Origin: a virus
Lineage: Duplodnaviria > Caudoviricetes
Virus record (IMG/VR): IMGVR_UViG_3300021963_000022
DNA length: 64,000 nucleotides
Direction: 5' to 3' (one strand)
In this document: positions 1,989-64,000 of the stretch, one piece after another
Numbering within the stretch: the first letter of the stretch is position 1
How the letters are laid out: every line of letters begins with the position of its first letter
The notes under the pieces: generated by a model
What the model was told of the DNA's origin: nothing
Seen by the model: the letters and a program-made list of their open reading frames with translations, nothing else
Databases searched by the model: none
Position numbers and translations under genes: made by a program

Positions 1989-2255
1989 ATGAAAGCATTG
2001 CAAAAATTCATTGACCAGAAGAATCACTGGAATAGTATTTTCAAAGGTGAGCAGTACGAAATCACCACTCATGCTGGTCGTCAGCGTGTTGCGGACATGA
2101 TTGATTCGGCTCTTAGCCCAGAGAATCTTACATGTGATGGTGAATTGCCCCGTGCAGAAGTTAACCGTCGCTGGAAAGAGTTGATGACTGCCGCTAAACA
2201 ATTGAAACAGTTGGACCCGTCTGTTAAGTTTTACGAATACGAATCTGAAATTTAA
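1989..2255 (+). CDS. Hypothetical early protein
   Basis: AGGAG RBS; cassette gene. Confidence 0.85.
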   Translation: MKALQKFIDQKNHWNSIFKGEQYEITTHAGRQRVADMIDSALSPENLTCDGELPRAEVNRRWKELMTAAKQLKQLDPSVKFYEYESEI

Positions 2256-2265
2256 GGAGAAGACA

Positions 2266-3009
2266 ATGCCTGGATTTGCTAATGTAACAAACATGACTAG
2301 CCGTCAAATTCAACGCATGGGTCATGCAGATGATACCGGTAGTGATTACTATCGTATCAAAACTAAAACACAAAAAGTTTCGGTAAATCATAATGCCGAT
2401 GATGTATGGAGTGCGGCATGTGCGGCACAACGTATCAACGGTAGTTATATCAAGTTAAGTAGAATTTCAGAAACACCGGATGTTACTAAGTTATCCAATC
2501 GTATGATTGTTGAACAACTGTTAGCTGATCCATTCATCATGACCGATGAGGATCGTGAGCAAGGTAAAAAGGTTCGTGCATTCTATCAGGCATTGACTTT
2601 CAAAATCTTGCAAGGTAAACAACTAAATGAGTTTGATAACAATGCAATGTTGATTGCCAATCGTGATATTATTACTAGCACCTATGATATTGCAGTTATT
2701 GCTAGTTTGCCATCATGCTATGAGCGTGGTGTTGAACGTCAATCAGTAGACCAGCGTGTCAATTTTGCACGTGGCGGATATATTAGTACTGTTGGTAACA
2801 AGATATCACTTACTGTTGAAGTATTGAAATCAATCTATTCACAAAAGTGGATGACACATTACATTACCGGTATTACTAGTGATGACCAAGTAGTGTTCTT
2901 TGCTTATAAAAGTGAATTGCCAGCTGGTAAGATGTTTGAAATTTATGGTACTGTTAAAAGTCATAGAGATAACACTACTCAACTTAATCGTGTGAAGGTT
3001 AATGTATGA
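2266..3009 (+). CDS. Hypothetical protein, possible C-terminal OB-fold
   Basis: AAGGAG RBS; C-terminus GxVKSH...TQLNRVK has an OB-like pattern. Confidence 0.6.
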   Translation: MPGFANVTNMTSRQIQRMGHADDTGSDYYRIKTKTQKVSVNHNADDVWSAACAAQRINGSYIKLSRISETPDVTKLSNRMIVEQLLADPFIMTDEDREQGKKVRAFYQALTFKILQGKQLNEFDNNAMLIANRDIITSTYDIAVIASLPSCYERGVERQSVDQRVNFARGGYISTVGNKISLTVEVLKSIYSQKWMTHYITGITSDDQVVFFAYKSELPAGKMFEIYGTVKSHRDNTTQLNRVKVNV

Positions 3010-3230
3010 ATATTCTATTTAAAGAATTTGCCGAAAAAGCTGATATTGTGTTTGGTGTTGACAAGAATGGTGATCCAGAGGTAATATGTGCTACAACTGA
3101 TATTGAAAAATTCGCACAATTGATTGTTCAGGAATGCAATCGTTATGCATGTAGTGCATGGGAACATGGTCCGTTGTTAGGTAGAGATTTGTTAATACAT
3201 TTTGGAATGGTGGAGTTGAATGATGAATAA
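3006..3230 (+). CDS. Hypothetical protein (EKFAxLIVxEC family)
   Basis: Motif EKFAQLIVQEC shared with 6035..6298. Confidence 0.7.
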   Translation: MNILFKEFAEKADIVFGVDKNGDPEVICATTDIEKFAQLIVQECNRYACSAWEHGPLLGRDLLIHFGMVELNDE

Positions 3231-60741: not shown

Positions 60742-61278
60742 TTACCTTTTAATTCCATAAAAATACAAATCACAATGAGGTGAACCCACTTCAAATGTGT
60801 GCGAACTAAACATCTTATCAATGTCTAGGTTATCCCTGAAATCTTTTTCAGTTAGATTCTTGTAGTAGTCCCAACCTTTGTCTATAGTCAATGGACTATC
60901 GCTAGGTGATGTACGTGTAGTACCATGCTCGGGTCTACCTGTTGTAGCACATGTCATAAATATCAATCCACCTGGCTTTGTCATACGATGCATGTTTACA
61001 AATGTTTCTACCCAATAAGGATTGTGTTCAAAACATTCACAGCTACCCACTGTATCATATGTATTATCAGGATGATCTAAGGTTTGACCTTCACATACTA
61101 AATCAACATCTCTACCCTGTCCAACGTCAATACCTAAGTATTGGCAATGACTAAAAAACATTCGTATTGAGCCATTGATATTGAGACTACCTACTTCAAG
61201 TACATTGACATTAAAAAAATGTGTAGGGTACAGAAGTTTTAGTTTTTGTATATAGTTAAATTGTTGTTGATGTGCCAT
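60742..61278 (-). CDS. Class I SAM-dependent methyltransferase
   Basis: VLEVGS, GIDV, ECFEH, KPGG. Confidence 0.85.
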   Translation of the reverse strand: MAHQQQFNYIQKLKLLYPTHFFNVNVLEVGSLNINGSIRMFFSHCQYLGIDVGQGRDVDLVCEGQTLDHPDNTYDTVGSCECFEHNPYWVETFVNMHRMTKPGGLIFMTCATTGRPEHGTTRTSPSDSPLTIDKGWDYYKNLTEKDFRDNLDIDKMFSSHTFEVGSPHCDLYFYGIKR

Positions 61279-61288
61279 TAAAATTCCT

Positions 61289-61364
61289 TGGAGCGGGCGA
61301 AGAGGCTCGAACTCTCGACATTTACCTTGGCAAGGTAATGCTCTACCAACTGAGCTACGCCCGC
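61289..61364 (-). tRNA. tRNA-Gly(GCC)
   Basis: GCGGGCGTAGCTCAG...TTGCCAA...TTCGAG...TCCA. Confidence 0.95.
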
Positions 61365-61365
61365 A

Positions 61366-61515
61366 TTAACTTGGAATAACATGTGGTATATATGGTACAT
61401 TACGTGGTCCATGTCGTTGTTCAAAAAGCTTTTTAGCTTCTTGTACGGTCGGTGCATACACACGATCTTTAGTATCACCTTGTGGTGTTCTAACTGTTGT
61501 TTCATACATTGGCAT
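61366..61515 (-). CDS. 49 aa protein between tRNAs
   Basis: AGGA RBS; MPMYETTVRTPQG... Confidence 0.6.
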   Translation of the reverse strand: MPMYETTVRTPQGDTKDRVYAPTVQEAKKLFEQRHGPRNVPYIPHVIPS

Positions 61516-61529
61516 ATATTATTCCTATT

Positions 61530-61604
61530 TGGTACATCGACACGGTTTCGAACCGCGGACCCTCTCCGTGTAAAGGAGACGCTCTACCCCTGAGCTATCG
61601 ATGC
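61530..61604 (-). tRNA. tRNA-Val(TAC)
   Basis: TCTCC-TTTACAC-GGAGA anticodon arm; CCA. Confidence 0.93.
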
Positions 61605-61614
61605 CTTATTCTAT

Positions 61615-61794
61615 TTAACCACCCTGTGTGCTATCTTTAACTTTTGTTTCACTAACAATACGTTCAAATTCATCATCTTCGTTTTTGTGATCCTCAACAA
61701 TTCTTGGATCAGGCTTACGAAAGATTAAGTCAAAGTTACTATCAAATGTCTTTAATGGGACACTAAATGGTCTTGGACTAGAACCCTTACTCAT
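61615..61794 (-). CDS. 59 aa protein
   Basis: MSKGSSPRPFSV...; ATGA-coupled. Confidence 0.6.
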   Translation of the reverse strand: MSKGSSPRPFSVPLKTFDSNFDLIFRKPDPRIVEDHKNEDDEFERIVSETKVKDSTQGG

Positions 61795-61955
61795 TTGTTA
61801 TTAGTCTTTCCAGAACCACGTGAATTACTTTGTTCAATCACAGCAAAACTGCGAATGAATGCACCACGTTCATGTGCGTCACGAATTTTTGCCGCGGCAC
61901 GTTTAACTGTCTTTGAAACTTTCACTGCTTTCGCATCATATCCTCTGCATGTCAT
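61791..61955 (-). CDS. 54 aa basic protein
   Basis: AAGGA RBS; MTCRGYDAKAVKVSKTVKR. Confidence 0.6.
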   Translation of the reverse strand: MTCRGYDAKAVKVSKTVKRAAAKIRDAHERGAFIRSFAVIEQSNSRGSGKTNNK

Positions 61956-61977
61956 AATATTTCCTTTTTAATTAAAT

Positions 61978-62055
61978 TGGTCGGAATGGTGGGATTCGAA
62001 CTCACGACCCTCTGCTCCCAAAGCAGATGCGCTAACCAGACTGCGCTACACTCCG
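61978..62055 (-). tRNA. tRNA-Pro(TGG)
   Basis: CGGAGTGTAGCGCAG...TTTGGGA...CCA. Confidence 0.95.
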
Positions 62056-62062
62056 AATATTC

Positions 62063-62383
62063 TTACCAGTAGTACCAGTGTGGCTTACGGCTCACACTAG
62101 GGTAATCAATGATATCCAAATCATTGATATCTACATTCAATACAATTTTCTCCCACTGACGACCTTTTGCTCGTTGTGGTTGATTCATCATTTCACGAAC
62201 CCACCACATGGGAGTGCTCATCCAGTGATACTCTGTATCAACTTTTTTTTTCTTTTTTGTTAAAACCCCGGGGTATTGTAAATAGTCAATATACTTACGA
62301 TTACCAATGAGGTAATATTTGTAATCCCAATCTTCTTCAGGGAATCTGAGTTTACTGGGACGATCTTTGTACGTTCTAGACAT
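62063..62383 (-). CDS. Hypothetical protein
   Basis: AAGGAG RBS; MSRTYKD...W..TP.WW. Confidence 0.75.
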   Translation of the reverse strand: MSRTYKDRPSKLRFPEEDWDYKYYLIGNRKYIDYLQYPGVLTKKKKKVDTEYHWMSTPMWWVREMMNQPQRAKGRQWEKIVLNVDINDLDIIDYPSVSRKPHWYYW

Positions 62384-62432
62384 AAAGTTCTCCTTATCTA
62401 AAATCGCATATTGACCTCGCTTTCTTAATGGT

Positions 62433-62507
62433 TGGTTGCGGGGGACGGATTCGCACCGCCGATCTTCAGCTTATGAGACTGATGAGTTACTACTTCTCCA
62501 CCCCACG
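62433..62507 (-). tRNA. tRNA-Met(CAT), initiator-like but atypical
   Basis: C1.A72, A11:U24, anticodon loop CTCATAA; lacks the three G:C pairs. Confidence 0.85.
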
Positions 62508-62530
62508 GTATATATTGTTATGATGTGAAT

Positions 62531-62707
62531 TTATGCTACAATAGGACGAAACTCAACCTTGAGTCCGTCTTCAACGTTGAAGTCTGATAGCAAACCGTTT
62601 GCTTTGGCAATATTTATTTCTTGCCAATAGTCTTTGGGTTGATAGCTATCACCCGTAACAGTTATTGTTTTATAAATTTTATCATTTATTAAAATTTTTA
62701 CTCGCAT
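62531..62707 (-). CDS. Hypothetical protein
   Basis: TAAATA 5 nt before ATG 62707. Confidence 0.6.
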   Translation of the reverse strand: MRVKILINDKIYKTITVTGDSYQPKDYWQEINIAKANGLLSDFNVEDGLKVEFRPIVA

Positions 62708-62725
62708 AATACTATTTATCATATC

Positions 62726-62801
62726 TGGTGGAGGATACAGGGATCGAACCTGCGACCTATTGCTTGCAAAGCAACCGCTCTCCCAACTGAGCTAATCCCC
62801 C
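62726..62801 (-). tRNA. tRNA-Ala(TGC)
   Basis: G3:U70, TTTGCAA loop, CCA. Confidence 0.95.
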
Positions 62802-62806
62802 TAATT

Positions 62807-62891
62807 TGGTACGAGTGGCCGGAATCGAACCGGCACACCTTTCGGCGAGAGATTTTAAGTCTCTTGTGTCTACCTATTTCACCACACTCGC
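62807..62891 (-). tRNA. tRNA-Leu(TAA)
   Basis: Long variable arm; CTTAAAA loop; CCA. Confidence 0.93.
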
Positions 62892-62892
62892 A

Positions 62893-63057
62893 TTATCTCA
62901 CAAATGCCTGAAAGTAATATGTAGTTGGGTTTAATGCATACCAACTACGAACCACACTGACACCACCTTGCGGTTGCCAGCCTTCAGACAATAATTCTGC
63001 TACTAGTTTATGAAATTCATCATAACTAGCATTTATAACCTTATACTCTGTTATCAT
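62893..63057 (-). CDS. DUF1737-like small protein
   Basis: YKVI...V..LL.EGWQPQGGVS; start placed at 63057. Confidence 0.6.
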   Translation of the reverse strand: MITEYKVINASYDEFHKLVAELLSEGWQPQGGVSVVRSWYALNPTTYYFQAFVR

Positions 63058-63062
63058 AACTT

Positions 63063-63147
63063 TGGTGCTCCAGGTCGGACTCGAACCGACACGCCTTTCG
63101 GCACTGGCTTCTAAGACCAGCGTGGCTACCAATTACACCACCAGAGC
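63063..63147 (-). tRNA. tRNA-Leu(TAG)
   Basis: Long variable arm; CTTAGAA loop; CCA. Confidence 0.93.
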
Positions 63148-63173
63148 AATTAAACTTTTTAAAGAACATACAT

Positions 63174-63202
63174 AGTATATAACAATAATCATATACTGTC
63201 AA
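63174..63202 (-). promoter_or_regulatory. sigma70 promoter for tRNA cluster
   Basis: TTGACA-17-TATACT. Confidence 0.75.
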
Positions 63203-63279
63203 ACATTTTGGGTTAGAAGAACTCAGACGTATAATAATCATTTACCGGTTAGTTATCACAGAGGTCCAAGCCTTGTTAT

Positions 63280-63355
63280 TGGAGCGGGAGGCGAGAGTCG
63301 AACTCGTCTATTTCTGCTTGGAAGGCAGACGTGTAACCAAAAACACTTCACCCGC
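63280..63355 (-). tRNA. tRNA-Gly(TCC), atypical
   Basis: TCTGC-CTTCCAA-GCAGA arm, U73, CCA; A8, U6.U67 and A.C mismatches. Confidence 0.8.
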
Positions 63356-63890
63356 GTTGATCCTTTTCTTGCCATTTTTTCTTAATAGCATCTGATATCT
63401 TTCTTTTATGTTCTTCTGACTTTGGTGGTCTTGATTTATATTTTGTACCTAATTTAGATTCTGAAATATTCATACGAACTTCATCGGTCATTTTAGGTGC
63501 TGTACCATTCTTACGTCTTGCAATCAAGACTTCTGACAACCTATCTCTGGTTTCTTGACTATGGTGTTTACCTAACATCTTAGGCATACCCGACTTGTTT
63601 ATATAATCGAAGCCACCAAAACCACCTCTACGAATATTGTAAACATCTTCCCTTAATAGGAATTCATCATTTACAAGTTCTTTTTCCCTAGCAAACATTT
63701 CTTCTGCTGTATCAAAATATTCTAAAATATCTTTTTTAAAATTTTCAATTCCATATTTGTCTTTTGCATAATTTAAGATTTTACCGGATCCCATGTAACC
63801 ATCATTTAAATTCTTAGTTTTATGAGTGCCTATATAAATTTTGTTGTCTAACAAATTAGTAATTTGGTATATGTAATAATAGTATTTCAT
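63348..63890 (-). mobile_element. Seg-like GIY-YIG homing endonuclease with NUMOD3-like repeats
   Basis: YIYQITN...YIG.H...YMGSG; HSQETRDRLS, SEEHKRKIS; start placed at 63890. Confidence 0.88.
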
Positions 63891-63924
63891 ACATTTATTT
63901 ATCAATAATGTGTAATCTGCTGTT

Positions 63925-63944
63925 TTACCACTATACGAACCCCG
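63925..63944 (-). pseudogene. 5' remnant of a tRNA-Gly
   Basis: GCGGGTTCGTATAGTGGTAA with no anticodon or T arm. Confidence 0.5.
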
Positions 63945-64000
63945 CTCATAAATACTTTATGCATACATATGACGCTATCACAGCTACGGGATTATTGATA

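Follow-up and report, generated by a model that had tools for sequence, protein, structure and literature searches.

What leads the gene of a phage homing endonuclease to end inside a tRNA gene, with the front part of another tRNA gene lying just ahead of it? The locus that raises this question belongs to a virus (Duplodnaviria; Caudoviricetes) recorded in IMG/VR as IMGVR_UViG_3300021963_000022, of which we analysed a stretch of 64,000 nucleotides (nt), hereafter the window. Its last 3 kb form a minus-strand tRNA array in which ARAGORN finds eight tRNAs. Within this array, the final 8 nt (GCGGGTGA) of a GIY-YIG nuclease open reading frame (ORF) are also nt 1-8 of a tRNA-Gly(UCC), as can be read directly from the sequence (63348-63355, minus strand). 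They comprise part of the last two sense codons of the homing endonuclease gene (HEG) and its TGA stop, which falls on tRNA nt 6-8. A sequence-only reading of the locus had noted this overlap and explained it by insertion of the endonuclease into a tRNA-Gly gene that was then rebuilt with the 3' end of the newcomer. Our comparison with related viral contigs (given by L numbers) upholds the overlap, the insertion and the physical coupling of nuclease and tRNA, but not the rebuilding. We propose that a HEG cassette of 666 bp overwrote most of the phage's tRNA-Gly(UCC) gene and brought its own complete replacement, a tRNA that we call V-type; we put the probability of this reading at roughly 0.78. 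Behind it stand the insertion in a tRNA-Gly gene, the boundaries of the unit, a recombinant remnant of the interrupted gene, a substitute tRNA with the same anticodon and selection on both HEG and tRNA, each apparent from sequence comparison.

The cassette extends on the minus strand from 63945 to 63280, that is, from nt 1 of the remnant (the stump) to nt 76 of the V-type tRNA. It consists, in this order, of the 5' half of a tRNA-Gly up to the anticodon loop, a 23-nt leader, the HEG and the whole V-type tRNA. Close relatives of the HEG (88-89% amino-acid identity) occur in four contigs representing two contexts (L128/129/159/162 and L130/131/160/161). In pairwise comparison, the similarity of the window to L159 is confined to 63946-63280 (88.6%) and that to L161 to 63945-63277 (86.1%), L159 and L161 have only the 666 bp in common (94%), and no similarity was found among the flanks of the three. 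The boundaries of the unit are alike in these three unrelated genomic contexts, where the V-type tRNA is followed by a spacer and tRNA-Leu in the window, by tRNA-Asn in L128 and by a promoter-like stretch and then an ORF in L130. The right junction lies in or just after 9 nt (CCCGCTCCA) common to the V-type tRNA and to type A, the tRNA-Gly(UCC) that is resident at the window's locus in relatives.

That the element sits inside a former tRNA-Gly gene is borne out by two HEG-free relatives, L062 and L099, which carry an intact type A gene between the same flanks. Both share with the window an upstream element (GTGATAGCGTCATA...), a spacer that starts directly after CCA (ATAACAAGGCTTGGACC...) and then tRNA-Leu(UAG), and the V-type tRNA of the window occupies the exact position of the resident gene's 3' end. 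The HEG is polymorphic at this locus, the site being filled in the window and L132/133 and empty in L062 and L099. The spacer (63205-63279, minus strand), which forms the right flank outside the mobile unit, adjoins CCA in the window, L062 and L099, with a single G in between in L132; it is 81-88% identical in L062, L099, L028 and L132.

The stump records which genes took part. The sequence-only reading had seen in it an orphan tRNA-Gly 5' arm; the arm exists, but it reads GCGGGGTTCGTATAGTGGTAA (one G more), starts at 63945 and not 63944, and belongs to a tRNA-derived segment of 32-35 nt, not 20. In its degenerate form the 21-mer matches once in the window against 0.02 matches expected, and its presence is no matter of chance. 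Its relation to the tRNA-Gly of other phages also holds, as the exact 21-mer is the 5' arm of an intact 74-nt tRNA-Gly(UCC), our type A, in at least 120 IMG/VR contigs. In the window it supplies nt 1-21, the acceptor 5' strand and D arm (63925-63945, minus strand). All 120 of the type A 21-mers listed elsewhere go on with TACCT, never with AACAG. The continuation of the stump, nt 22-32 or the 5' strand of the anticodon stem to U33 (63914-63924, minus strand), differs from type A and is identical to L128, L130 and type B, a second abundant tRNA-Gly(UCC) that occurs in at least 120 contigs and is intact in more than 100. The stumps of L128-131 equal type B over nt 1-32 and diverge from it exactly at the anticodon. 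The window's stump matches type A over nt 1-21 and type B over nt 16-32, nt 16-21 (TGGTAA) being common to both. Because the hybrid continuation is absent from the intact type A genes listed, this stump is a type A/type B recombinant, and its crossover lies in the D-loop TGGTAA that both types have. The pattern indicates that a cassette from a former type B host gene met a resident type A gene and left a hybrid stump.

Between the stump and the start codon of the HEG lies the 23-nt cassette leader ACACATTATTGATAAATAAATGT (63891-63913, minus strand), identical to that of L128 at 23 of 23 positions and to that of L130 at 22 of 23; relatives of it are present in L132, L136, L137 and L337. Taken together, leader and type B portion of the stump equal L128 at 34 of 34 nt, as compared with 74% (133/180) at third codon positions of the HEG. 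By our own arithmetic, such identity would arise at the third-position rate with a chance of about 4e-5. Since it is better conserved than the third codon positions, this segment is functional, and it could hold expression signals for the HEG, serve as a homology arm, or both. A regulatory hairpin in stump and leader was considered and rejected, the minimum free energy of -11.5 kcal/mol (z = 0.32) being no better than that of shuffled sequences. In a test of the leader for T4-type late promoters across the 64-kb window, GATAAATA was not enriched (8 found versus 5.7 expected), and the late-promoter box TATAAATA was depleted (3 versus 11.2 expected, with at least 3 in 100 of 100 shuffles). In L337, a perfect TATAAATA and AAGGAGG lie ahead of the HEG.

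The nuclease ORF (63348-63890, minus strand) has 180 codons and a TGA stop at 63350-63348; it starts with the ATG at 63890, the longest ORF call reaching a TTG at 63905. Pfam recognises an N-terminal GIY-YIG domain at residues 4-74 (PF01541, 28.3 bits, cut-off 22.6) and a C-terminal DNA-binding module, NUMOD3 (PF07460, 27.7 bits, cut-off 20.4), while the SegE_GIY-YIG model scores 22.6 bits, below its cut-off of 25. The translation shows the motifs YIYQITN...KIYIG, AREKE and YNIRRGG and matches PHROG 314 'homing endonuclease' with E = 2.5e-47. Among cultured phages, the best matches come from T4-like ones and are HEGs of the Seg type (SegD-like, 42-46% identity); a sequence search of the PDB gave no meaningful match. 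Among GenBank phages we found no close DNA relative, the nuclease gene alone matching at 66-75% over about 20% of the query. The gene is a free-standing, Seg-like one, with its own ATG and out of frame with any host protein, and an Rfam search of 61000-64000 with a limit as loose as E <= 10 detects neither introns nor ribozymes. In all pairs of cassette relatives its dN/dS ratio (nonsynonymous to synonymous substitution rates) is 0.04-0.19, which indicates that it is under purifying selection. Site-specific cleavage of the HEG-less allele and preferential inheritance in mixed infection are predicted for its product, with indirect support from the recombinant stump and the purifying selection.

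The tRNA at the other end of the cassette (63280-63355, minus strand) is complete, with an encoded CCA, and was called by ARAGORN. Its Rfam score of 44.5 bits (gathering score 29) is the weakest of the eight tRNAs of the window. It forms a cloverleaf with G18 G19, T-loop UUC, U33, anticodon UCC, discriminator U73 and CCA. The U6.U67 mismatch and A8 to which the sequence-only reading had drawn attention are real, Rfam flagging 6-67 as non-standard, and to them we add U14, U21 and A49.C65, of which Rfam flags 49-65 as well. In place of the near-universal U8-A14 pair and A21, the V-type tRNA thus has A8, U14 and U21, and A8/U14 could be a swapped 8-14 tertiary pair. Our literature search for 'A8-U14' found no paper.

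This tRNA is a member of a family of 68 viral contigs in IMG/VR, with 56 distinct contexts (examples are L002, L006, L007 and L282-L336). As the search pattern fixed U14 and U21 and left A8 free, invariance can be judged for A8 only: all 56 contexts have it, even the two whose nt 6-8 read CAA or CGA, and 54 of the 56 have U6. Since A8 is kept in contexts with no stop codon at nt 6-8, we regard it as a family trait matched by U14 and U21, not as a by-product of the stop. The idea that the stop codon is the reason for keeping U6-R7-A8 was likewise tried and dropped, a search relaxed at nt 6-8 having gained only those two members (CAA and CGA), each with a C6-G67 pair. Across the 56 contexts the 5' start is constant, GCGGGT followed by GA or AA (GCGGGTGA/GCGGGTAA), and among the 25 distinct V-type sequences U6.U67 is found in 18 and A49.C65 in 24. 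Seven stem pairs (in the acceptor, anticodon and T stems) have changed on both sides, a covariation reached by 0 of 500 shuffles, and 91% of cells are paired versus 39-59% when the partners are slid. These figures indicate that the V-type tRNA is under selection as a cloverleaf. It is the sole tRNA-Gly(UCC) that ARAGORN lists in the tRNA-rich contigs L006 (29 tRNAs) and L007 (25 tRNAs), and in no locus examined did it occur together with an intact type A or type B tRNA-Gly. Among prokaryote genomes, sampled at one per species, there was a single V-type match, on a 564-nt tRNA-only contig of a metagenome-assembled genome. As an abundant phage tRNA family with what may be a swapped 8-14 pair, the V-type is of interest in its own right.

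A Seg-like HEG precedes the V-type tRNA in only four of the 56 contexts (the window, L128/129, L130/131 and L309, which is L337). In nearly all contexts, the feature ahead of the V-type tRNA is an unrelated ORF, a promoter-like stretch or a different tRNA, and for most V-type genes no ORF terminates at tRNA nt 6-8. Where the HEG is present, the overlap is equivalent, with TGA in L128-131 and TAA in L337, so that the coupling of nuclease and tRNA is retained in relatives down to 61% amino-acid identity. In five loci, however, ORFs unrelated to the HEG and lacking a stop of their own also end at nt 6-8 (TGA or TAA) of a V-type tRNA-Gly. Three of these ORFs are MazG-like (L304:5779-6081, L306:3636-3929 and L335:10432-10725) and two encode unknown proteins (L297:3-581 and L317:8887-9192). 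Because the tRNA family is kept without the HEG and unrelated ORFs stop there as well, the V-type tRNA provides a stop to any abutting ORF, and its 5' end was not supplied by the HEG.

More distant relatives of the cassette are arranged alike. In L337 (HEG 61% identical), the stump of a fourth tRNA-Gly, type D, reaches to the anticodon and is followed by leader, HEG and V-type tRNA, the HEG ending in the same frame at a TAA that forms tRNA nt 6-8; a type D search listed 30 contigs, and in the 29 besides L337 the gene is intact. L132/133 (HEG 74% identical) share both locus and flanks with the window. Their stump combines type A sequence with a B-like fragment to the anticodon, and their HEG runs into a third type of tRNA-Gly, stopping at a TAG in its D loop. 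L134 has the same third-type tRNA behind a HEG that lacks its first 47 codons, and in L316 a V-type tRNA stands alone directly behind an upstream element like that of the window. Together these contigs look like stages of invasion, decay and loss, an order that we infer.

How, then, did nuclease, stump and tRNA come together? According to the sequence-only reading, the HEG entered the resident tRNA-Gly near nt 8/9, its last 8 nt becoming the new 5' end of the old body and the original 5' arm being displaced upstream. The 8-nt overlap, U6.U67, A8 and the upstream 5' arm on which this account drew are all real. The body downstream, however, is not that of the resident gene, type A and V-type differing in D arm, anticodon stem and T arm, and the stump reaches the anticodon, not nt 8. 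The identical atypical tRNA, GCGGGTGA included, follows other tRNAs, promoters and unrelated ORFs in more than 50 HEG-free contexts, A8 persists where nt 6-8 are no stop, and the ORFs of L304, L306, L335, L297 and L317 end at the same place. Reconstruction of the tRNA by the HEG is therefore very improbable, HEG-free relatives with this atypical tRNA being what the sequence-only reading had itself named as a refutation. We give just as little credit to a gene split at the RNA level, whose 5' half-tRNA would be joined to a 3' part through a HEG-housing group I intron or in trans, as in the split tRNAs of archaea. The break does lie in the anticodon loop, the usual site of tRNA introns, and the stump is well conserved. 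Against this, no intron family or other ribozyme was detected in 61000-64000 at E <= 10, the leader folds no better than shuffled sequence (z = 0.32), the resident spacer directly follows the V-type tRNA, and the 3' half of a type A or type B tRNA-Gly, which such joining would need, is absent from the entire 64-kb window.

A more ordinary history deserves closer attention, though we consider it unlikely. The HEG could be a SegB-like gene between two tRNA genes, of which the upstream tRNA-Gly was cut back by an unrelated deletion or decay and the V-type tRNA is merely the next gene, so that there would be no single mobile unit. SegB-type genes generally do lie between tRNAs (PMC13096335). V-type tRNAs are common without a HEG, and in the distant relatives L136 and L137 (51-55% identity) the HEG directly follows a complete tRNA 3' end and has a similar leader (TTGATAAATA...). 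Against such a history, stump, leader, HEG and tRNA recur as one block with the same limits in three contexts without shared flanks, and the stump always ends at the anticodon, in lineages down to 61% identity and with four different resident tRNA types. Also against it, the 3' part of the stump and the leader are better conserved than synonymous sites, and the V-type tRNA of the window lies exactly where the 3' end of the resident gene was.

The mechanism that we propose for the replacement cassette is as follows. The nuclease would cut HEG-less tRNA-Gly(UCC) genes of co-infecting phages, and the break would be repaired from the cassette allele, with the tRNA-derived ends acting as short homology arms: the left end would pair with the stump, and the newly made strand would anneal via the shared tRNA 3' end. 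The resident gene would be destroyed, and the nuclease and a substitute tRNA of the same anticodon installed, so that decoding of GGA and GGG is kept. The V-type tRNA presumably escapes cutting. As type A has the same anticodon loop with the same stem bases next to it, any discrimination must rest on another part, most plausibly the very different D arm. The overlap may have a consequence of its own, since maturation of the V-type tRNA by RNase P would sever the nuclease mRNA 5 nt before its stop. One transcript would then yield either a terminable mRNA or a tRNA, never both, and expression of the nuclease would stay low.

Several points weigh against this reading. Cleavage, the target site, homing and the immunity of the V-type tRNA are all assumed in it. 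The anticodon loop with its adjacent stem bases (GCCTTCCAAGC) is identical in the V-type tRNA and its type A target, and the perfect homology on the right-hand side amounts to only about 9 nt, which is short for ordinary homologous repair. As the majority of V-type genes lack a HEG, the tRNA could be an ordinary gene of phages and the HEG no more than its neighbour. The phage may also have a second tRNA-Gly(UCC) outside the 64-kb window. Finally, the empty-site comparison is clean for the window's locus only: L178, the nearest relative of L161, was rejected as a clean empty site for the cassette of L161, as additional ORFs differ between the two.

If the tRNA-derived homology arms are portable, the cassette could home into any phage with a tRNA-Gly(UCC), whatever the synteny, and would amount to a natural cleave-and-rescue drive acting on an RNA gene. 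It is tempting to suggest that such a drive explains the spread of the V-type tRNA in freshwater phages, many HEG-free V-type genes being leftovers after loss of the nuclease; we regard this extension as possible but tentative and would at present sooner doubt it than rely on it.

The cassette allele is present in no fewer than 14 public DNA runs, which are labelled as freshwater, estuary, drinking-water and a few other metagenomes and contain at least 0.90 of the sampled words of the stretch; some of them may represent the source sample. Contigs from an independent freshwater run of 2024 cover the whole stretch with no differences. Among contigs assembled from RNA libraries, where DNA carry-over is possible, one of 151 nt spans the ORF-tRNA junction (63275-63425) and one lies within the ORF (63626-63745).

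The flanks of the locus merit description in their own right. Before the resident tRNA-Gly site and outside the mobile unit lies a conserved element (63946-63981, minus strand; GTGATAGCGTCATA...TAAAGT...) that aligns with L062, L099, L028 and L316 immediately ahead of their tRNA-Gly. It is promoter-like and may act as a promoter, but scores below the threshold of our sigma-70 scan. Between 63000 and 64000 that scan found 4 sites versus 4.4 expected, only TTGACA-17-TATACT before tRNA-Leu(UAG) being convincing. An element with GATAGCGTCAT recurs in many related contigs, where it stands in front of tRNAs, small RNAs or ORFs, often with a TATAAT-like box after it; it is found at 63946-63981 (minus strand) of the window and in L020, L041, L056, L062, L067, L082, L087, L099 and others, and it may be a phage-specific promoter or operator. 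On the other side, the spacer (63205-63279, minus strand) has a predicted, conserved long hairpin (GGCUUGGAC...GUCUGAGUU) with little covariation so far, and RNA-library contigs of relatives touch it at 63228-63272; it may be a small structured RNA. L028 (9284-9823, minus strand) and likewise L105 have an insert of about 540 nt with an unidentified ORF between the CCA of an intact type A tRNA-Gly and the conserved spacer. Because these inserts directly follow the CCA, the tRNA-Gly 3' end is a second insertion hot spot. Two further observations concern other tRNAs of related contigs. In L161, the ORF of an HNH-type endonuclease (2128-2664, plus strand) enters the 5' part of a tRNA-Leu(UAA) (2603-2690) and is missing from the syntenic L178. 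The other is an ARAGORN call in L316, a relative of the window and a phage contig of 364 kb: a tRNA whose anticodon has four bases (tttc; 3026-3100, minus strand), which could be frameshift-suppressor-like or an artefact.

Free-standing HEGs are known from positions between phage genes, and they are known to take adjacent DNA with them. Taken as a biological strategy, the replacement cassette would be that of a HEG lineage that uses the interior of a tRNA gene as its landing site and makes up for the damage with a second, different tRNA that has the anticodon in common. The cassette would offer a concrete mechanism for the allele-by-allele replacement of phage tRNA repertoires and would explain why the tRNA arrays of phages contain orphan tRNA halves. 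With 180 amino acids and 666 bp the system is small, and its predicted substrates are defined, so that it could be tested directly in vitro. Our search of the literature on HEGs in tRNA genes, which was incomplete, turned up work on SegB and no description of a HEG cassette with a replacement tRNA. SegB is a GIY-YIG/NUMOD3 enzyme encoded in the tRNA cluster of T4 that recognises the T-loop sequence of tRNA genes and cuts after CCAR at the 3' ends of these genes; it drives the inheritance of the T4 tRNA region, with itself and the flanking tRNA genes included (PMC2330249). The stop codon of segB coincides with the site at which the 5' end of tRNA-Arg is processed, and a cut between the last codon and the stop was proposed to keep the enzyme scarce (PMC2330249). 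Across phages, homologues of SegB show a statistical enrichment next to tRNAs (PMC13096335). The window's gene resembles SegB of phages T4 and T6 in combining GIY-YIG and NUMOD3, in being free-standing within a phage tRNA array and in having its stop codon at a tRNA 5' end. SegB, however, sits between intact tRNA genes, whereas the element described here lies inside one, with the break in the anticodon loop; a conserved 5' half remains, and the cassette invariably brings along a different tRNA as a substitute of the same anticodon. The protein itself is distant from SegB, its best matches in cultured phages being the SegD-like ones. Three features thus set the cassette apart from SegB: it lies within the gene, at the anticodon, its half-tRNA is conserved, and a substitute isoacceptor is obligatory.

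Other nucleases offer partial parallels. Group I introns with homing endonucleases interrupt the anticodon loop of cyanobacterial tRNA-Leu and tRNA-fMet genes, I-Ssp6803I being an example. Here too a tRNA gene is the target, the insertion is in the anticodon loop and a conserved RNA gene provides a widely available homing site. Introns restore their tRNA by splicing, though, whereas the interrupted gene of the window is dead and its function would come from a second, complete tRNA. In Aeromonas phage Aeh1, mobE splits nrdA, and in fungal mitochondria the atp6/ORF360 'mORF' carries a replacement gene end. As in our case, a free-standing HEG lies inside a functional gene, function is kept by the allele of the element and a dead remnant is left; those are protein genes of which a part is kept or replaced, while here an RNA gene is substituted by a whole, sequence-divergent isoacceptor. 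The same logic is found in Cleave and Rescue (ClvR), a kind of synthetic, Cas9-based gene drive used in eukaryotes. In both, a nuclease destroys a useful resident gene and the element carries a copy that is presumably resistant to cleavage, a resistance that for the window's rescue tRNA is only inferred. ClvR was engineered; the tRNA-Gly cassette would be a natural counterpart to such cut-and-rescue drives.

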